A DNA stretch of 64,000 bases from an uncultured Bordetella sp. (GTDB taxonomy: Bacteria; Pseudomonadota; Gammaproteobacteria; Burkholderiales; SG8-41), in NCBI GenBank assembly GCA_964531455.1, contig CAZHFZ010000010.1, positions 8,806-72,805 on the forward strand, in the 5' to 3' direction. The notes beneath the pieces were generated by a model. It made no database searches, had not been told where the DNA came from, and was given only the letters and a program-made list of their open reading frames with translations. The translations under genes were made by a program, and so were the position numbers. Below, in pieces: positions 56,736 to 64,000 of this stretch. Position 1 is the first letter of the stretch. Each line of letters starts with the position of its first letter.

Positions 56736-57079
56736 TAATTTCAATTAACCATCATTAAATTATAGTTAGCCACTTTCCCGAAAAGCACTTGCACCAAGCC
56801 TCGTATCCGAGAAGCCCTTCGGCTCGAAGTCGAAACAAGCGCTATCGGGTGGTGGCGGACGTCGTCGAGGTGGCTCGGGATCGGGCGAACGGTCTCGAGG
56901 GTGAGTTGCAGTGGCCAGGATGTGGCGACGTCGCTGGTCAGGGGCGGGATGGCTTGGGTGTATGACCGGTATTCGAGGGCGGATTCGCCACTTTACGGAG
57001 AGCAGGCTGCGCGGCGGGGGTTATGGGCGGACAAGGCGCCGATGGTGCCGTGGGAGTGGCGTCGAAAATAACTTCGTCA

Positions 57080-58453
57080 TTACCCTCCAAGCATTTCCGC
57101 AAATTGAGAAATGTCTTTTTCATGCTCAATCAGCTTCGTTTTCTCAATAATTCTTTGAGCCAATGCGTCATCAATTAAGTTATTCGATTGTCTTAGGAAT
57201 TTATCCGTAACATCACCCCAACCCATAGGATTGTTGGGATCCCCTTTGGGATAAAGAATTTCCTTCAGGAACGTGCCGCGTTGTGTTGTTATCTCCACAG
57301 CAGCCGGTCGCGCACCTTTCTTGAACAATGCCGTCAAATGCGGCTTGGCCTCAAGAGAGCACAATTTCATCAAATTGATGACATCCGCATTTTGCAGCCA
57401 CTTTTGTTCAAACTGTTCAGAAGTGCACTCACCAGCAACAAGTCCAACCACTGTGCAGTAGTAAAAACTATGGTCGGCCGTTTCCTTGTTTTGTGGGGCG
57501 TGCTTGTGATCATCCCAGCTGGGCTTGGTGACAGCTTCTTCATGAGCAAAGATGCGAATGCGTTGCACTTCATTGGGCTTAATGTTGTGCTCATTGCGGA
57601 GCTCAATGGCTGCCTGAACCATTGCTGGGGTCATGCCTTCTACAGGGTAGGGTTTAAGTCCGATCTTCATGATTCTGAAATCATCTAATGTCGGTACAAG
57701 AGGCTTCGCATCAACACCTCCAGCAACGGAATTGACGAATCCGTATGGCCCCTCTATCAAGGTTTCGCAACCCGTAAACCCTTTCTTCGCAAGAATGGCG
57801 TAGAGGATTGACTGGCTCGCCACTATCGGTGCGGAAAGAGCCTTATCCATCGGTATATTGCCGTGGCGTATTTCCGAGAAAGTATTTGCCCTTGCCCCGG
57901 AAAGCGCGATTGCATGACCAAGCTGGGTCTGGTTCAGCCCTAAGACACGTCCTGCCCCAGCTGCTGCTGCATATGAACAGGCTGCCGTGTGATGCCAGCC
58001 TCGATGCCATAGATTCTTTGGCACCGGTAGATCGGAGAATCGCAACTGCACTTCATACGCAACGATCAAGCCAAGCAGAAAATCAATACCAGAACACTTT
58101 TTCCATTCAGCCGCTGCAAGCACTGAAGCAATAGTGTCGCTTGGGTGCGCGGTCCATGCTGGTCCAAAATAAACGTCGTTGTAATCCTGATAGCGAATGG
58201 CAACCCCATTTGCAAGAGCCGCGAACTGGGTGTTGGTTTTGATGCCCTTTCCAAGAATTGTGGCTTGGGGATGCCCTCCCAATTCAGATACACCCTCACG
58301 CACAATGCACGCAGGCTGACTATTGAGACCCCCAAAACCGCAAGCAAGACTGTCAAGCAGTATGCGCTTGGCATAGTCGATAACATTTGGAGCTAAGTGC
58401 TCCGCGCTTAAGCCAGCGGCGTATTCGCCGATGGATTCTACGATCGTCCCCAT
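57080..58453 (-). CDS. MmgE/PrpD-family protein (2-methylcitrate dehydratase superfamily)
   Basis: 457 aa with collinear PrpD-like motifs (LLDSLACGFGG, AHPSD, GWHHTA..). Lower GC than the core. Confidence 0.85.
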   Translation of the reverse strand: MGTIVESIGEYAAGLSAEHLAPNVIDYAKRILLDSLACGFGGLNSQPACIVREGVSELGGHPQATILGKGIKTNTQFAALANGVAIRYQDYNDVYFGPAWTAHPSDTIASVLAAAEWKKCSGIDFLLGLIVAYEVQLRFSDLPVPKNLWHRGWHHTAACSYAAAAGAGRVLGLNQTQLGHAIALSGARANTFSEIRHGNIPMDKALSAPIVASQSILYAILAKKGFTGCETLIEGPYGFVNSVAGGVDAKPLVPTLDDFRIMKIGLKPYPVEGMTPAMVQAAIELRNEHNIKPNEVQRIRIFAHEEAVTKPSWDDHKHAPQNKETADHSFYYCTVVGLVAGECTSEQFEQKWLQNADVINLMKLCSLEAKPHLTALFKKGARPAAVEITTQRGTFLKEILYPKGDPNNPMGWGDVTDKFLRQSNNLIDDALAQRIIEKTKLIEHEKDISQFAEMLGG

Positions 58454-58527
58454 AATTTCAAACCCCGTTGGTTTTAATCAATCACATTCATCGGCGCTGC
58501 GGATAAAGCAGAACGTGACCTTTCGAA

Positions 58528-59505
58528 TTACTGCTCTTTGATACCGGCATCCTTGATTACTTTTGTCCAAATATGGAGCTGATCAGCAAGGAGTTTTCCA
58601 AGTTCTTGGGGCGTACTTACAACGATTTCAATGCCATGAGACGCCATCATCTTCTTGACGTCATCAGTCGGCAGTTGCTTCACGATCTCCTGATTCAGAC
58701 GATTAATTACATCCTGGGGTGTGCCGGCCGGTGCAACAACTGAATAGATCTGGCGCATTTCGAAGCCAGGCAAACCACTTTCACTAATCGTTGGAATATC
58801 CGGTGCCAGCGGTGAACGTGCTGGAGTTGTCTGCCCAAGCGCTTTCAAGCGACCAGATTTAACCTGTGCAAGTATTGCTTGGTAGTTGCCAAACATGATG
58901 TCGATTTCACCAGAGGCAATCGATACCATCGCCGGTGTGGTGCCCTTAAAAGGAACATGAATGAGTTCAATCTTCGCCATAGACTCCAATAACTTCATGC
59001 CCAAGTGTGCGGCACTGCCGGGACCCGTGCTGCCGTAAGTCAGGCTGTTTTTTCTTGATTTCGAGAGACTGATTACATCTCTGACTGATTTGGCCGGCAC
59101 GGATGGATGAGCAGCAAGCATATACGCCGTCGTTGCAGCTAATGAAATGGGGGCGAAATCCTTGATTGGGTCATAGTTGATATTTGAATATAGTGCTGGG
59201 CCGGTGATTAGTGCGCTCGCACTTGCTTGAAAGATCGTGTATCCATCCTTTGGTGCTCTTGCCACCAGTTCAGCTGCAATTCGTCCACCACCACCTGGGC
59301 GATTGTCTACAACGATTTGCTGACCCAATGCAGGACCGACTTTCTGGGAGATCAGCCTCGCTATGGTGTCAGTGCCGCCCCCCGGGGGGTTGGGTACGAT
59401 CAAACGAATTGTTCTGACTGGAAATGCCTGCCCAAGTACTGGAGGGGCAATCCCCGTGTAGATCAATCCAAATATCATCAAACCTATTGAGCTTTTAGAA
59501 ATCAT
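58528..59505 (-). CDS. Bug/TctC-family periplasmic substrate-binding protein
   Basis: Signal peptide, plus PVRTIRLIVPNPPGGGTD and VVDNRPGGGG motifs. Confidence 0.85.
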   Translation of the reverse strand: MISKSSIGLMIFGLIYTGIAPPVLGQAFPVRTIRLIVPNPPGGGTDTIARLISQKVGPALGQQIVVDNRPGGGGRIAAELVARAPKDGYTIFQASASALITGPALYSNINYDPIKDFAPISLAATTAYMLAAHPSVPAKSVRDVISLSKSRKNSLTYGSTGPGSAAHLGMKLLESMAKIELIHVPFKGTTPAMVSIASGEIDIMFGNYQAILAQVKSGRLKALGQTTPARSPLAPDIPTISESGLPGFEMRQIYSVVAPAGTPQDVINRLNQEIVKQLPTDDVKKMMASHGIEIVVSTPQELGKLLADQLHIWTKVIKDAGIKEQ

Positions 59506-59668
59506 GGTGCGGTCTCCTCCTATCAGAATTGATTCCGAATGTATGTTTTTGACCGACTATTAAAATAGTTTCTTTAAATCTTTTACGTTTCAGATTCCTA
59601 ACAAAACATGTTTAGATTTCTTAAATCACTTTACTGCTTACCTGCGAAGGGCTTAGGTCTGTGGCTAC

Positions 59669-60247
59669 CTACAGGCCTTCCAAGAAAGTTACGGTCGTTG
59701 ATGTCAGTATTGTCGACATCCGCTTTGTTTGATCGATTACAGCCTGATGCTGTTCTTCGCTCAACGCACAACAACAATCATCCAAGATGTAAACATCGTA
59801 GTCGCGGTCATGCCCATCTTTAGCGCCGGATAGCACTGCGCCACTTGTCGAAACGCCGGAGAGATACAAACGACTAATACCGTTTGCTTTCAATATGGGT
59901 TCGAGGCTAGTGGCATAAAATGGGCTTACTCGATGCTTTACGATGTCAAAGTCACCAGGCATCGGTTTTAAAGCCGGGTGTACTTCAGTCCCCCATGTGC
60001 CGAGCTTGAATATTCCTGCCTTTTTTGCGCCTTGAAATATTCGAGATGTCGGGGGGCACTCTCTGTAATCTGGCGAAAACCCGATGCGCACATAGCCCAC
60101 TTGAACATTTATCGCACGGGCTTTGCGTATCGCTTCTGCGGTATTCGCGATCGTATTGCGTCGGTGTAGCTCTGGGCCGTAGCCTTTCTGTCCATTCGGG
60201 CCATCGTCATGAATCAGGTCATTGATCATATCGAGAACCAAATACAT
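59669..60247 (-). CDS. Isochorismatase-family hydrolase lacking the cysteine nucleophile
   Basis: MYLVLDMINDL supplies the Asp and IVKHRVSPFYATSL the Lys. At the T-x-x-C-V position the sequence is TSGAV. Confidence 0.7.
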   Translation of the reverse strand: MYLVLDMINDLIHDDGPNGQKGYGPELHRRNTIANTAEAIRKARAINVQVGYVRIGFSPDYRECPPTSRIFQGAKKAGIFKLGTWGTEVHPALKPMPGDFDIVKHRVSPFYATSLEPILKANGISRLYLSGVSTSGAVLSGAKDGHDRDYDVYILDDCCCALSEEQHQAVIDQTKRMSTILTSTTVTFLEGL

Positions 60248-60324
60248 CGCTTTTCCTGACACATTTACCCCCGATCGAAAAATGCCAGATCCATCTTTAG
60301 AAAATCGTTACACAAATAAATCCA

Positions 60325-60360
60325 GACATGGATCTCCGTTCAATGGCTGAGATCCATGTC
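60325..60360 (-). terminator. Strong hairpin between the hydratase and isochorismatase-like genes
   Basis: Perfect 12-bp inverted repeat GACATGGATCTC/GAGATCCATGTC with a 12-nt loop, followed on the minus strand by TGGATTTATTTGTG. Confidence 0.55.
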
Positions 60361-60405
60361 CTTAAGGCAGAACCATTAACTACAATGTATTTCTAACTAC
60401 CCAAA

Positions 60406-61608
60406 TTAGCGAACAACCGGGAGCTCAAGATCACATACGGTTCCATCAAGAGGGACCTTTGTCGTCACATCTTTTGAAGGGAGCATCACTGTTGCAAAAC
60501 CTGGTGAAGACAGATCCCCTCGTTGGTTGATGCCCTTCATTTCGATATCAATCAGAGCGCAGCGGTCTTTGACATATTTCTTGACTATTTTCCCGGTAAT
60601 AAATGTCGTATCACCTTGGCAGTTGAAAAGCCTGGCTTCCATTCGGAGGCGCTTAAGAACTGCATCATCCCCCATCCAGTTGGTAATGGCTGTGGCGAAC
60701 CAACATGCCCTTTGCGGGAGATAGTCATACATGCCAGGAACGCCGACTTCTTTAGCAAAGTCCTCGCGGTGATGCCCGATGCCGGTATATTCGATTCCAC
60801 CCCCCGTTTTTTTATTGCGGATGTAGTGTTTCGGGTGTTTTGCGGCGTGCCTCAAAAGGACGCCGTGAGCAGCTCCGCGGCCTGAAGCGATCACGAATGC
60901 CATCGTGTCGGAGGAGGAAAGCGGACCCCGAGCTATTTCGTCGATGGAGTCGCCGACATTTACATCCTCCCAGTGCCGTGTATTTTGACCCCGGATTCTG
61001 TCTTGCTCGGTCAATACCATCTCGTCAATTCGCTCACGCTCTGCCGAGGTGTAAACATGCGTCTTTACCTCCTTGTATTTGCCGGTATCGCGTGAAGCTT
61101 TACGCTCATGGCGTGCAGTCATGCCGAGAGCGCGGCAAAGAACTTCGTCCCTTTGATTGATGTACGTTGACTCCAGATACTGCATGGCCATCTTTCCAGA
61201 GAATTTTGATGCTTTCTCATGGATATCGATGACGCGGTTCCAGATGCTGATGCGATCACCCGGACGCACGTTTCTGTAGTACTCGCAATCAATGGCAACA
61301 CCAAAGCCGTGTACACCAGGAAGCCCCCAATATGAACGCCCCGGCCAATGGTGGGTCCACGGGAAGCACGGATGCGCGATCAAACCACCGAATCGCGTCC
61401 AGCGAGCATATTCCTGATCCCGATACAGGGGATTGAGGTCGCCGATTCCGTTGGAGAAAATTGTGATGCTGTCCAGGCTGGCATCACGTAGATATTGTTC
61501 GGGACGCAACTTGCATCCGATCAACTCACGCGCCGCTGACATTGAAGCTTCGTTGATTTTGCCTTCTGGTGCTTCTTCGTTGATGTCTAATTCGATTCTC
61601 TTGTTCAA
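60406..61608 (-). CDS. Double hot-dog (FAS1-type N-half + MaoC-type C-half) acyl-CoA (de)hydratase
   Basis: 400 aa with two hot-dog-like halves. The size and layout resemble mesaconyl-/itaconyl-CoA hydratase-type enzymes. Assigned by eye. Confidence 0.6.
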   Translation of the reverse strand: MNKRIELDINEEAPEGKINEASMSAARELIGCKLRPEQYLRDASLDSITIFSNGIGDLNPLYRDQEYARWTRFGGLIAHPCFPWTHHWPGRSYWGLPGVHGFGVAIDCEYYRNVRPGDRISIWNRVIDIHEKASKFSGKMAMQYLESTYINQRDEVLCRALGMTARHERKASRDTGKYKEVKTHVYTSAERERIDEMVLTEQDRIRGQNTRHWEDVNVGDSIDEIARGPLSSSDTMAFVIASGRGAAHGVLLRHAAKHPKHYIRNKKTGGGIEYTGIGHHREDFAKEVGVPGMYDYLPQRACWFATAITNWMGDDAVLKRLRMEARLFNCQGDTTFITGKIVKKYVKDRCALIDIEMKGINQRGDLSSPGFATVMLPSKDVTTKVPLDGTVCDLELPVVR

Positions 61609-61620
61609 GATCTTCTCCTG

Positions 61621-62499
61621 TTATTCTGCTTGCTGTAATGCTTCCCGTGCTTTTGCGACAACGTTGGTGATGCCTTTTGCAGTGAGCACACCAGCTCGAC
61701 GCAGAACCTTGTTCTTCTCTTCATGAGTGTCATTTTTTCCACCCACAAGTGCGGCTGCGTGCCCCATCTTCTTGCCTGGGGGGGCAGTGGCCCCAACAAT
61801 CAGTGCGGCTACCGGTTTGGCTCCTGGCCTTCTTGCGTAGTCAGCAACGGCTGCTTCTTCGGTGCCACCAATCTCGCCGAGATACATCACCGCTTTTGTT
61901 TCAGGGTCCTTATGAAACAACTCAAGGGCCTCAAGTGCCGTCGTCCCCTTGACGGGGTCGCCCCCGATCCCGACTACAGTTGTCTGACCAATGCCTGCGA
62001 CCGTTAATCGTTTGCAGGCCTCATAGGACAGAGAGCCGCTTCTTGAAATGACCCCCATCTTTCCCTTCATGAAACAGAAGGACGGCATGAAACCCATCTT
62101 CGCCTTGCCTGGAGAGATGATTCCTGGGGTGTTCGGTCCGATGAAATGTGCGCCGTTTGCTCGAGCTGCTGCGCGAATCTCGATGGCATCGCGGACCGGG
62201 AGTTCATCCGCAGTTGCGACCACGAGTTTGCATCCTGATTCGATTGCCTCTATTGCTGCGCTACGAACAGACGCCGGAGGCACAAAAACCATTGCAGTGT
62301 CCGCCCCCGTATTTCTGACTGCTTCGGCAACACCCTCAAAAACGGGAACCCCTTCAACGTTATTTCCACCTCTTCCTGGTGAAACACCGGCAACGATTTG
62401 GGTTCCATAACCCCGCGAGTCGGTTACAAAGAAGGTTCCCATTGCCCCGGTAATACCCTGGACCACTACTCGATTGCCCTTATCCAGAAGGATGCTCAT
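61621..62499 (-). CDS. Succinyl-CoA-synthetase alpha-like subunit (CoA-binding, phosphohistidine)
   Basis: VVVQGITG, SRSGSLSYE and a catalytic-His motif KKMGHAAA. Confidence 0.85.
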   Translation of the reverse strand: MSILLDKGNRVVVQGITGAMGTFFVTDSRGYGTQIVAGVSPGRGGNNVEGVPVFEGVAEAVRNTGADTAMVFVPPASVRSAAIEAIESGCKLVVATADELPVRDAIEIRAAARANGAHFIGPNTPGIISPGKAKMGFMPSFCFMKGKMGVISRSGSLSYEACKRLTVAGIGQTTVVGIGGDPVKGTTALEALELFHKDPETKAVMYLGEIGGTEEAAVADYARRPGAKPVAALIVGATAPPGKKMGHAAALVGGKNDTHEEKNKVLRRAGVLTAKGITNVVAKAREALQQAE

Positions 62500-63623
62500 G
62501 ATTTTTTCGCCAATTTAATGGCCTCCCTTACGGCATGTTCAAGGGACTCGTGATTGATCGCGCCGAAGGTTTCAAAAATCCCTGGAACTTGATCGACATA
62601 TGTACCGTCGAGTCGAAAGATGACCGGTTTTTTGCTTTTTCGCATCGCCATGTTTTCTTTCATGGCATTTGCAACGCGATTCATCTGTGTTCCGCCACCA
62701 AAAACGCTGACCAGAATCACTTTAACGGCAGGGTCGTGGTCGAGCAGGGCAAAAGCTGGTTTATAGCCTCGCGTGGATGTCGGTCCGGGGCTGCAGTCAA
62801 AGAAGCATGCGGGTTTTCCGCCAAATTCATGGATGAGATCCATCGCCCCCATCGTCATGCCTGCACCGCCAGATATCAGTCCGATATCTCCATCCAGCTT
62901 GACGTACATGTGCTGCATGTCCAGACAAGCTTTCAGCCACTTGTCTGCGCGCGCCCTGTTTTTTGATTGCTGCTCTTTGATGTCCGCATTACGGTAATGC
63001 GCCCATTCGTCGTAAACGATCTTTGCATCCAGCGCCATGAGCTCACCGGATTTGAGCTTTGCGAGGGGATTAATCTCCACCGTCGTGCAGTCATTTGCAG
63101 TCGCTATATCCACCAGTCTTTGTGCCAGTGCGATGACCTTCTCGCGCAACTGAAAGTCTTTCTCTACCGGACTCAGGATGGCGCGCAGTTTGTGCGCTCG
63201 AAATAGCCACGGGGCACCGATCGGATATCGAACTGGCGGTTTTCCGTTTTCAATATCTACACCCCCCTCAGGGGAATACATCACGACGTAGCCTTCCGCA
63301 GCAGCGTCCACCGTTACGGAGAGGTAAAGTTCGCGATCTATTGCCAGCCACGGATCAGCCAGTAGTGATTCAGCCTTCTCGCCATTGAACTCCGTTCCGA
63401 AAAGCTTTTTGACAGCACTTTTCAGTGAAGCTGAATTGACGGCCTTGACTATCCCCCCTTGCTTTCCGCGTCCTCCGCTTCGGACCTGTGCTTTCACTGC
63501 AACAGGAAAAGTCTTCACTCGCTTGAGTGAGTTCGAATTGGCGTTTCTTAATAGCACGCCTTTGGGTACGGATATTCCCGCTGATGCAAGCAGATGCTTT
63601 GCCTCATATTCCAGAATCATCAT
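62496..63623 (-). CDS. Succinyl-CoA-synthetase beta-like subunit (ATP-grasp)
   Basis: MMILEYEAKHLL start behind an AAGGAGGAG SD (SucC starts MNLHEYQAK). PVAVKAQV..GGRGK motif. ATGA overlap with the alpha subunit. Confidence 0.8.
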   Translation of the reverse strand: MMILEYEAKHLLASAGISVPKGVLLRNANSNSLKRVKTFPVAVKAQVRSGGRGKQGGIVKAVNSASLKSAVKKLFGTEFNGEKAESLLADPWLAIDRELYLSVTVDAAAEGYVVMYSPEGGVDIENGKPPVRYPIGAPWLFRAHKLRAILSPVEKDFQLREKVIALAQRLVDIATANDCTTVEINPLAKLKSGELMALDAKIVYDEWAHYRNADIKEQQSKNRARADKWLKACLDMQHMYVKLDGDIGLISGGAGMTMGAMDLIHEFGGKPACFFDCSPGPTSTRGYKPAFALLDHDPAVKVILVSVFGGGTQMNRVANAMKENMAMRKSKKPVIFRLDGTYVDQVPGIFETFGAINHESLEHAVREAIKLAKKS

Positions 63624-63727
63624 TTGAATGGGCTCCTCCTTCAGCGTGCTGAATATAGGTCCCTCAAACCATGCCAACAAACAATAATTAATCATAGGAA
63701 TATGCTGTTTAGGCATATACTTTTGGA

Positions 63728-64000
63728 ATGACGCTCAAACAACTTCGATGCCTCAGGGCCATAGTCCGGTCTGATTTCAGCATTTCTGCGGCGGCTCAAG
63801 CGCTGCATGCCACCCAGCCTGGGTTGAGTCGCCAACTTCAACTCCTGGAGCAGTCTCTTGGCATTTCACTGTTTGTTCGGCGAGGAAAACGGTTATTGGC
63901 CCTTTCAACCGCAGGCCAAAATATCCTGTTGATTGCAGAACGCATGCTTCAGGATGCGGAAAATATTCAAGAGTCCGCACGGGAGCAAACCGACAATAGT
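63728..64000 (+). CDS. LysR-family transcriptional regulator, N-terminal 91 aa (runs off window; not in ORF track)
   Basis: My translation is MTLKQLRCLRAIVRSDFSISAAAQALHATQPGLSRQLQLLEQSLGISLFVRRGKRL..., a canonical LysR HTH. Divergent from the ligase operon. Confidence 0.75.
   Translation, partial: MTLKQLRCLRAIVRSDFSISAAAQALHATQPGLSRQLQLLEQSLGISLFVRRGKRLLALSTAGQNILLIAERMLQDAENIQESAREQTDNS

Follow-up and report, generated by a model that had tools for sequence, protein, structure and literature searches.

A compositionally distinct island beside rpoH in an uncultured Bordetella carries a predicted coenzyme A-dependent organic-acid catabolic operon with two enzyme families new to functional description

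Itaconate, mesaconate and citraconate are immunometabolites, antimicrobials and monomers of bio-based polymers, and their breakdown by bacteria has been mapped only in part. In the 3-hydroxypropionate bi-cycle and the methylaspartate cycle, the Mch-Mct-Meh-Mcl segment comprises mesaconyl-coenzyme A (CoA) hydratase, a family-III CoA-transferase, mesaconyl-C4-CoA hydratase and a lyase of the HpcH type. An itaconate cluster of Pseudomonas aeruginosa was reportedly described by Sasikaran in 2014. Here we analyse a 64,000-nucleotide stretch of DNA from an uncultured Bordetella sp. (contig CAZHFZ010000010.1; hereafter the window), whose right end, from position 57,080, holds the first part of an island with an operon of six genes and a divergent regulator gene. 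Among known systems, the nearest is the P. aeruginosa-type itaconate/methylsuccinate cluster, in which PA0878-PA0883 encode Ich, Mcd, the lactonase Rdo, Msi, Ict and Ccl (PMC9875883; PMC12290011).

Like that cluster, the island appears to serve the CoA-dependent catabolism of a 2-substituted succinate. It has in common with it a PrpD-family protein, a LysR regulator and, as in C. necator, a Bug binding protein, and the module adjoining the operon just past the window end has an Ich orthologue, a Ccl-like HpcH lyase and a family-III CoA-transferase. However, the operon within the window has none of Ict, Ich and Ccl, the island has no Mcd, and its PrpD-family members are not Msi. A ligase resembling SucCD (SucC'D'), a double hot-dog protein of 400 amino acids (aa) (HD400) and a Cys-less isochorismatase-like protein (Iso) are absent from the descriptions of characterised itaconate clusters that we consulted, and HD400 belongs to a different family from the P. 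aeruginosa Ich (PaIch), with 11-12% identity in structural alignment. The Mch-Mct-Meh-Mcl segment has the same set of folds, namely a large double hot-dog hydratase, one or more family-III CoA-transferases, a hot-dog hydratase of ~280 aa and an HpcH lyase. Mesaconyl-CoA hydratases (4e3e, 8hgn) are among the best structural matches of HD400, yet their identity to it is again 11-12% and HD400 does not match the MC_hydratase family of Pfam. The setting of the island is also catabolic, with uptake proteins and Iso, unlike that segment. We describe the island as a putative CoA-dependent organic-acid catabolic operon with two enzyme families new to functional description, HD400 and Iso. A literature search for the gene combination found, in the library consulted, no paper assigning a function to HD400, Iso or the ligase, and the curated models of NCBIfam and Pfam offer none for HD400, Iso or SucC'D' either. 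A first-pass annotation of the window, made from the letters alone, had likewise recognised no matching pathway.

The genes of the operon are transcribed in the order SucC', SucD', HD400, Iso1, TctC1, PrpD1, and the features of the block are as follows.

57080-58453, minus strand: PrpD1, MmgE/PrpD family, 457 aa, last gene of the operon (Pfam MmgE_PrpD_N 205 bits, MmgE_PrpD_C 119 bits).
58528-59505, minus strand: TctC1, periplasmic solute-binding protein of the Bug/tripartite tricarboxylate transporter (TTT) type, 325 aa, with signal peptide (Pfam TctC 217.5 bits).
59669-60262, minus strand: Iso1, isochorismatase-like, Cys-less, 197 aa from GTG 60262 or 192 aa from ATG 60247 (Pfam Isochorismatase 128.5 bits).
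60406-61608, minus strand: HD400, double hot-dog protein, 400 aa (Pfam FAS1_DH_region 54 bits; MaoC 21.7 bits, below cutoff).
61621-62499, minus strand: SucD', ligase alpha subunit, 292 aa (NCBIfam NF004230 335.3 bits, cutoff 336).
62496-63623, minus strand: SucC', ligase beta (ATP-grasp) subunit, 375 aa (NCBIfam NF001913 265.5 bits, cutoff 370).
63624-63727, no strand: divergent promoter/operator region of 104 bp between sucC' and lysR, with a palindrome and shared motifs.
63728-64000, plus strand: LysR1, CysB family, 91 N-terminal codons only, cut by the window end (Pfam HTH_1 61 bits).

All seven family assignments of the first-pass annotation were upheld, those of the Cys-less and the double hot-dog proteins included. 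The translational coupling it had proposed for the ligase pair was confirmed by an ATGA overlap of sucC' and sucD'.

The ligase retains its catalytic apparatus but differs from succinyl-CoA synthetase (SCS) where the substrate would bind. SucD' has motifs for the phosphohistidine (GHAAA) and for CoA binding (QGITG) and, in 'SGSLSYE', the Tyr of the distal carboxylate site. SucC' scored 260.9 bits against TIGR01016 (cutoff 375.55), its 'NGAG' motif reads 'GGAG', and its 'FGGIV' motif reads 'FGGGT'. In structure 5CAE, the backbone of GIV binds the C4 carboxylate of succinate (PMC11489063); all 37 SucC' family members read G-G/A-T at this position. Against the malate-CoA ligase equivalog, SucC'D' scored 181.7 bits (cutoff 604). 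These features argue for an ADP-forming ligase with intact catalytic motifs and a roomier, more polar distal pocket. Since the GIV motif is changed family-wide, the ligase does not appear to be a spare SCS, and no second SucCD is encoded within the window. The dedicated, non-housekeeping ADP-forming ligase postulated earlier is thus supported by the sub-cutoff score of SucC' and by the changed GIV.

Several two-subunit homologues of SCS are embedded in catabolic operons as SucC'D' is: SauCD for sulfoacetate (PMC10413351), HpfYZ for 3-sulfopropionate (PMC11489063) and the malate thiokinase MtkAB. SauCD works with a TTT binding protein, and TctC1 lies in the operon of SucC'D'. The distal carboxylate site is altered in HpfYZ as in SucC'D', but to GIN with an alpha-subunit His, whereas SucC'D' has G-G/A-T and keeps the alpha-subunit Tyr. 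The partner enzymes in the operon differ from those of SauCD, HpfYZ and MtkAB. SucC'D' would therefore add to the SucCD-like ligases a specificity class with a simple sequence signature.

HD400, the signature enzyme of the module, is predicted to be a double hot-dog (MaoC-like) hydratase or dehydratase. An AlphaFold model from a 15-sequence alignment had a predicted local distance difference test score (pLDDT) of 46 and was discarded; with 70 sequences, type-B homologues (see below) included, the model reached pLDDT 84.7 and a predicted template-modelling (TM) score of 0.88. Foldseek recovered a complete double hot-dog, as had been called from the sequence, with identities of 8-15%; E values were 1e-17 to 1e-11 and target-normalised TM 0.57-0.73 for 4v12, 5i7n, 4e3e, 8hgn and 8huc. 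The best matches were the mycobacterial MaoC-like dehydratases 4v12 and 5i7n, the mesaconyl-CoA hydratases named above and PaIch (8huc, 8khg), along with dehydratase domains of fungal FAS and MFE-2. The MaoC_dehydratas model of Pfam fell short on HD400 (21.7 bits, cutoff 27). In the N-terminal domain, the motif GIGDLNPL[Y/F]RD has the Asp of the hydratase-2 motif, and the position of the His is Y/F in 15/15 aligned sequences; L58, N59 and L61 were invariant in a second alignment (A2). In the C-terminal domain, EYTGIGHHRED has the His and a Thr at the Asp position. Hence, with the hydratase-2 consensus assumed here, neither domain holds both Asp and His in these alignments, and the two domains appear to carry complementary halves of the motif.

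Sequence searches placed HD400 in a large family. Its homologues in the database number 1436, and the names of the best 120 are generic throughout. In a profile search over 1.84 billion cluster representatives, the HD400 orthogroup formed one cluster at 50% identity (776 bits), the next full-length cluster scored 476 bits, and the wider superfamily comprised 514 clusters at E <= 1e-30.

Iso lacks the nucleophile of the enzymes that it most resembles in sequence. In sequence it stands nearest to the cysteine amidohydrolases biuret hydrolase, RutB and YecD, and alignment of Iso1 to solved cysteine hydrolases showed that Asp11 and Lys109 are kept while 'TSGAV' stands in place of 'TxxCV'. Asp and Lys are invariant in 69/69 orthologues, in which the nucleophile position is Ala (36) or Val (33) and never Cys. 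The lack of the catalytic Cys, reported in the first pass, thus extends to all of these orthologues. A role as cysteine amidohydrolase or amidase was ruled out on this ground, and the RefSeq name 'cysteine hydrolase' is wrong and misleading, since the catalytic Cys is never present. The true isochorismatases EntB and PhzD, which are vinyl-ether hydrolases, also keep Asp and Lys and have no Cys nucleophile. Iso has the fold and this residue pattern in common with them, but matches no EntB- or PhzD-specific model of NCBIfam or Pfam, and its context is acyl-CoA metabolism rather than siderophore or phenazine synthesis.

In order to determine how widely the module occurs, we scanned one genome per Genome Taxonomy Database (GTDB) species for HD400, mapped the island families and clustered the open reading frames (ORFs) over the 80 best loci. 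HD400 relatives were found in 386 GTDB species, and HD400 and Iso occurred together in 61/76 loci. The 80 loci fell into two architectures, type A (42) and type B (38). Type A, to which HD400 proteins at least 63% identical to that of the window belong, has the order sucC'-sucD'-HD400-Iso, usually followed by TctC; next in line is a crotonase in 15 loci, and elsewhere a PrpD-family gene or an Ich-like gene with an HpcH lyase; SucC' adjoins HD400 in 37/42 of these loci. Its hosts are mostly uncultured Betaproteobacteria/Burkholderiales, with a few from other phyla.

In type B, HD400 is ~57% identical to the window protein and the order is HD400, two family-III CoA-transferases, Iso. HD400 is present in 38/38 of these loci, Iso in 33/38, the two CoA-transferases in 32/38, an Ich-like hydratase in 29/38, a GntR regulator in 28/38, a beta-hydroxyacid dehydrogenase and a Liv-type ABC transporter in 27/38 each, an HpcH lyase and a short-chain dehydrogenase/reductase in 22/38 each, and an SMP-30 lactonase in 14/38. 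The lyase scored best on the RipC/Ccl model. The CoA-transferases gave 47-81 bits with the mesaconyl-CoA isomerase model (cutoff 725). A lactonase is also found in the P. aeruginosa cluster. In type B it is of the SMP-30 type in Betaproteobacteria (L091, Cupriavidus pinatubonensis HN-2 plasmid p2, K2O51_RS33855-33925; L079, Achromobacter spanius) and an unrelated protein of the metallo-beta-lactamase type in Agrobacterium (L094, A. pusense plasmid); such non-orthologous displacement argues that lactone opening is a real step of type B. RefSeq has only generic names for the whole operon. More distant HD400 relatives (~35% identity) again adjoin family-III CoA-transferases.

The pair of HD400 and Iso is thus constant, and the enzymes of CoA activation can replace one another. 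Replacement of the ligase by CoA-transferases in type B identifies the role of the ligase as activation of the substrate. Enzymes of the Ich and Ccl types are the usual partners downstream. The island of this genome combines ligase, HD400, Iso, Ich-type, Ccl-type lyase and CoA-transferase genes. Cultured type-B hosts include Achromobacter, Bordetella, Variovorax, Diaphorobacter, Pusillimonas, Cupriavidus, Agrobacterium, Rhizobium, Ochrobactrum and Maritimibacter. The module is therefore widespread and testable in culturable bacteria (Achromobacter, Bordetella, Variovorax, Cupriavidus, Agrobacterium and Rhizobium among them), though conceptually unsurprising, and the HD400-Iso pair offers a testable handle on a missing branch of itaconate-family metabolism.

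The first-pass annotation had described a coherent set of seven genes and had seen no lyase before the window end, but these genes are only part of the unit. Freshwater contigs of the same population from metagenomes and metagenome-assembled genomes (MAGs) (for example JGI Ga0335013_0001359 and GCA_044352615.1) encode identical proteins and extend at least 9.5 kb further, with additional enzymes. We read this continuation chiefly on contig L001 (19.6 kb; L139 is the same contig), which reaches the equivalent of ~73 kb in window coordinates. The order outwards is LysR1, PrpD2, a 281-aa hot-dog protein, TctC, a family-III CoA-transferase, a crotonase, a frameshifted TctC, a second LysR, Iso2 and an HpcH/CitE-type lyase. 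Three of these are located as follows.

L001 7154-8602 (~64.7-66.1 kb window-equivalent): PrpD2, 482 aa (TIGR02330 514 bits, cutoff 458).
L001 6260-7105: 281-aa hot-dog protein (233 bits, E 2.4e-68 to PaIch 8khg over residues 10-268).
L001 27-449: HpcH/CitE-type lyase, C-terminal fragment of 140 aa (best solved match 8khl, 92 bits).

On these scores, PrpD2 classifies as a true PrpD of the 2-methylcitrate dehydratase type, and the 281-aa protein as an orthologue-level homologue of the itaconyl-CoA hydratase PaIch (Ich). The lyase fragment matched 8khl at 92 bits, ahead of CitE (62), Rv2498c (57), CLYBL (48) and RipC (47). Among NCBIfam models it gave 77 bits with CitE and 67 with RipC_Ccl, both far below cutoff. 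8khl, a "probable acyl-CoA lyase beta chain", is, to judge by the depositor's name, presumably PAO1 PA0883 (Ccl); the literature gave no confirmation of this identity. The CoA-transferase is nearest to SUGCT (266 bits), the second LysR is CysB-like (317 bits), and Iso2 is a second Cys-less protein, 52.6% identical to Iso1. Extension to the right, suggested in the first pass, thus supplied a lyase, an Ich orthologue and a CoA-transferase just past the window end, and did not attain the far boundary. An exact 47-mer from the L001 end had no match among metagenome contigs; a homologue search with the lyase fragment gave a best match 63% identical, and an identical protein was not among the matches.

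PrpD2 adjoins the Ich orthologue with neither prpB nor prpC nearby, an unusual pairing. The frameshifted TctC (L001 2197-3175, ~70.1-71.1 kb) consists of a 95-aa N-terminal piece with signal peptide and 251 aa in another frame; it is probably a real pseudogene, because the split calls recur in L002, L003 and L139.

PrpD1 is neither a true PrpD nor a methylsuccinate isomerase. It scored 101.7 bits on the PrpD equivalog NF006943 (cutoff 575) and 83.5 on TIGR02330 (cutoff 458), and the solved structures nearest to it, those of cis-aconitate decarboxylase, PrpD and IDS epimerase, reached only 57-84 bits. The two equivalog scores ruled out PrpD. The carboxylate-binding and catalytic residues are present (DxxD, the His of AHPS and of GWH, the Lys of MxK), and the residue at the epimerase Tyr145/148 position is Trp. 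Methylsuccinate isomerase (Msi), a PrpD-family enzyme with a His/Tyr two-base site, always adjoins the acyl-CoA dehydrogenase Mcd (PMC12290011). With the Tyr replaced by Trp, and no Mcd among the genes of the 19.6-kb contig, Msi was excluded as well.

Orthologues of PrpD1 (61-79% identity) share the operon in L133 and L130. Elsewhere, in at least 10 loci, they lie in units of LysR, a PrpD paralogue, PrpD1 and TctC that contain no CoA enzymes and look like a separate system acting on free acids. Since the TctC1-PrpD1 addition usually sits in such CoA-independent units, the in-window operon is better regarded as a composite of a conserved core, sucC'D'-HD400-Iso, and a TctC1-PrpD1 add-on than as the coherent set that it first seemed. 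In the tandem loci L106, L108, L109, L111, L112, L115, L118, L120, L126 and L132, the PrpD1 orthologue directly follows the paralogue (24-28% identical); about half (L111, L112, L115, L118, L126) have LysR upstream, and TctC is often near.

The best solved relatives of TctC1 are BugE, AdpC, Bug27, TphC and BugD (173-206 bits), of which the named ones bind carboxylates. These carboxylates are of various kinds, so the relatives leave the ligand of TctC1 broadly defined. No TctA or TctB is encoded from 57 kb to the ~73 kb equivalent, in line with what had been stated of the seven genes, and TctC1 presumably uses a transporter encoded elsewhere; orphan Bug proteins are normal, and the orphan state, remarked on in the first pass, is no signal.

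The abrupt change of GC content and codon usage at ~57.08 kb, estimated from single lines in the first pass, was confirmed by a computed profile. We used GC windows of 1 kb and 300 bp, GC at third codon positions (GC3) for each gene, and a codon adaptation index (CAI) self-referenced to the core. Overall, GC drops there from ~0.59 to ~0.50. In 1-kb windows, it was 0.54-0.65 (mostly ~0.59) up to 57 kb and 0.48-0.53 in the remaining stretch to 64 kb; 300-bp windows within the island gave 0.40-0.56. The 52 core ORFs had a GC3 of 0.686 +/- 0.047 with a minimum of 0.581, and the six complete island genes had 0.472-0.554 (z -2.8 to -4.5), all below every core ORF. CAI was 0.51-0.59 in the island genes and 0.682 +/- 0.048 in the core (z -1.9 to -3.5). 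The switch in GC falls within ~20 bp of the PrpD1 stop codon (57080), and immediately to its left, at 56.80-57.07 kb, GC is still core-like. Beyond the window, GC3 stays at 0.45-0.53 out to ~68 kb (window-equivalent). The outermost genes, at 0.58-0.67, are near core values, and the island is therefore possibly a mosaic. Every contig with an identical RpoH carries the island, and this is the only site beside rpoH/SCO1/ctaAB among loci with the cluster. Given the sharp break in GC, GC3 and CAI and this unique location, the block probably belongs, as its left part, to a catabolic island that was acquired horizontally, spans at least 16 kb and adjoins rpoH.

We consider it on balance probable that the island is a peripheral branch of C5-branched dicarboxylate (itaconate-family) catabolism, leading through SucC'D', HD400 and Iso into Ich and the lyase. 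TctC1 would capture a substituted C4-dicarboxylate, an analogue of succinate, and PrpD1 might first isomerise, dehydrate or decarboxylate the free acid at C2. SucC'D' would then form the CoA thioester, a chemistry that follows from its intact catalytic motifs, with the substrate assigned more loosely. HD400, as its modelled fold suggests, could hydrate, dehydrate or isomerise the CoA ester, and Iso may take part in a step other than cysteine-dependent amide hydrolysis. The product would pass to Ich and the citramalyl-CoA-type lyase of the adjoining module to give acetyl-CoA and pyruvate, a flux suggested by homology. The general scheme of the first-pass annotation (uptake, CoA activation and hydration of an acid of the itaconate, mesaconate or citramalate type) is supported as an idea.

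Most likely, the substrate belongs to the C5-branched dicarboxylates of the itaconate family and is not directly accessible to the classical Ict-Ich-Ccl cluster. Itaconate can be activated by SCS, and some clusters have no ict (PMC12290011); neither citraconate nor (R)-citramalate is used by the cluster of P. aeruginosa (PMC9875883). Because of these two properties and of the Ich- and Ccl-type partners, the itaconate family is the best supported class, with citraconate, (R)-citramalate, beta-methylmalate or mesaconate activated at C1, and itatartarate as candidates. More tentatively, HD400 and Iso may together carry out a chemistry not yet described, giving a new and CoA-dependent access to the Ich/Ccl trunk, HD400 through its split Asp-only and His-only half-motifs and Iso by acting like PhzD on a 2-substituted acrylate instead of as an amidase. 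The substrate would then be a natural product related to itaconate and outside all known pathways; candidates are citraconate, (R)-citramalate, and the fungal antimicrobial 2-hydroxyparaconate or its product itatartarate, and type-B operons would supply a lactonase and dehydrogenases suited to this route. A published route of itatartarate degradation was not found.

Several observations weigh against the acquired itaconate-family branch proposed here. The nearest type-A relatives (~90% identity) have an operon that ends in a crotonase, with no Ich or lyase in cis, and the structural matches of HD400 to Mch and Ich are only 11-15% identical, in a fold where any double hot-dog hydratase scores alike. 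No characterised orthologue was found for HD400, Iso, SucC'D' or PrpD1. PrpD2, by its score a true PrpD, points to tricarboxylates; the regulators are of the CysB family, and SauCD and HpfYZ, the sole characterised recruited SucCD-like ligases, act on sulfonates. As to acquisition, no mobility genes lie within the 19.6 kb covered by contig L001, and the right boundary of the island was not reached in the available contigs.

These points lend some weight to other explanations. A plain variant of the itaconate/methylsuccinate cluster, with SucC'D' in place of Ict and with HD400, Iso and PrpD1 accessory or redundant, would account for Ich, the Ccl-like lyase and the CoA-transferase within 10 kb; the P. 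aeruginosa-type cluster also includes a PrpD-family protein, and the activation of itaconate by SCS and the clusters without ict (PMC12290011) fit it. We nevertheless judge it unlikely, given that the HD400/Iso pair is tightly conserved and missing from the descriptions of characterised itaconate clusters that we consulted, that Mcd is not present though Msi always adjoins one, that PrpD1 is without the epimerase Tyr and PrpD2 is by its score a true PrpD, and that the lactonase and two dehydrogenases upstream in type B imply a different entry substrate. Distinctly unlikely is a tricarboxylate route, in which TctC would import an acid of the aconitate, methylcitrate or tricarballylate type, PrpD2 and PrpD1 would interconvert acids of the citrate/aconitate type, the ligase, a relative of citryl-CoA synthetase, would make the CoA ester, HD400 would hydrate this to a citryl-CoA-like intermediate, and a CitE-type lyase would release acetyl-CoA and an oxo-acid. 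The hot-dog protein beside PrpD2 is an Ich orthologue by its 233 bits to PaIch, two of three comparisons place the lyase nearer to 8khl and RipC than to CitE, and PrpD2-like genes do not recur with HD400 across the 80 loci. That PrpD2 passes the PrpD equivalog (514 against 458), that the lyase fragment also matches CitE (77 bits) and that the distal pocket of SucC', roomier with Gly in place of Ile, could hold a third carboxylate all speak for this route, as do the three or four TctC genes of the island, although Bug proteins bind many kinds of carboxylate.

An organosulfur route, by which the ligase would make the CoA ester of a sulfo- or thio-substituted carboxylate (for example sulfosuccinate or 3-sulfopropionate) and HD400 would beta-eliminate sulfite to an enoyl-CoA, draws on the two CysB-like regulators (408 bits, above cutoff, and 317 bits), on SauCD and HpfYZ, the only characterised recruited SucCD-like ligases and both sulfonate enzymes, and on the crotonase, able to hydrate an enoyl-CoA, at the end of many type-A operons. 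It is very improbable: no sulfite exporter, sulfite dehydrogenase or desulfonating enzyme occurs in the loci examined, the association with Ich- and Ccl-type enzymes is consistent, and HpfYZ has GIN and an alpha His where SucD' keeps the alpha Tyr. We give almost no credence to a redundant SCS among unrelated neighbours without a common pathway. SucD' comes within a bit of its cutoff (335.3 against 336) and overall identity to solved SCS structures is moderate; but SucC' (265.5 against 370) does not, the substrate-site motifs including GIV are altered family-wide, the conserved operon order sucC'-sucD'-HD400-Iso is kept in 37/42 type-A loci from several phyla, and in type B CoA-transferases take the place of the ligase. 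On these grounds a redundant SCS was rejected, and the itaconate-family branch remains the preferred reading.

The left junction is sharp and abuts a gene remnant on the core side.

56901-57071, plus strand: staphylococcal-nuclease-like remnant, 5'-truncated and probably frameshifted (PF00565 positions 59-106 of 107, 19.3 bits, E 1.6e-3).

The remnant has core-like GC and ends in '...GLWADKAPMVPWEWRRK*', its stop codon lying 8 bp from the first island stop codon. Scans of the junction detected no attachment site, Rfam family, terminator, significant direct repeat or stable RNA structure, and a GC-rich stretch at the junction folded no better than shuffled sequence (z -0.23). No tRNA was found at 50-64 kb of the window. 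On the core side, the region upstream of rpoH has a strong promoter-like site, TTGAAA-17-TATATT, at 56744-56716; the called RpoH gene encodes 286 aa and a longer ORF 294 aa.

The start of SucC' was revised. The ORF delimited mechanically (to 63716, 406 aa) is 31 codons too long; the true start is ATG 63623, because GGAGGAG lies 9 nt before ATGATG and all orthologues begin with MMM or MMI followed by LE. NCBI annotation of the MAG likewise gives 375 aa, and JGI gene calls give 406 aa. HD400 starts at TTG, with AGGAGA upstream as ribosome-binding site.

We propose that the divergent CysB-family LysR1 controls the in-window operon. Full-length LysR1, from L001, has 306 aa and scored 408 bits on the CysB-family model NF009327 (cutoff 402), and at least 11 type-A loci have an orthologue of it (49-74% identity) in divergent orientation upstream of sucC'. 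The control region contains a perfect palindrome, ATATGC-N7-GCATAT, at 63700-63718, the T-N11-A form of the LysR box. The window has a single copy, where chance would give 0.12, and the orthologous loci L133 and L031 conserve the palindrome in part. A second shared motif (TTGTTTGT..GCAT) stands upstream of a TATAGT/TATATT box in orthologous intergenic regions.

Some variation was seen among relatives. The LysR-sucC' intergenic region of L035 has a tandem-repeat insert (GGTGTTTCCTC / GGCGTTTCTTC, ~six copies). SucD' is polymorphic in length within the population, with 287 aa in L001/L139 and some contigs and 292 aa in the window and others, owing to a 15-nt in-frame indel. In C. pinatubonensis, the type-B operon is followed by a DUF2889 gene and pyruvate carboxylase. 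Seven cluster-bearing MAGs (L011, L012, L016, L018, L021, L035 and L047) have the public title 'Bordetella parapertussis', almost certainly a taxonomic mislabel. Finally, a Bug/TctC paralogue 39% identical to TctC1 lies at 1167-2057 on the plus strand, in the core part of the window, and fits a Bug-rich betaproteobacterial host.

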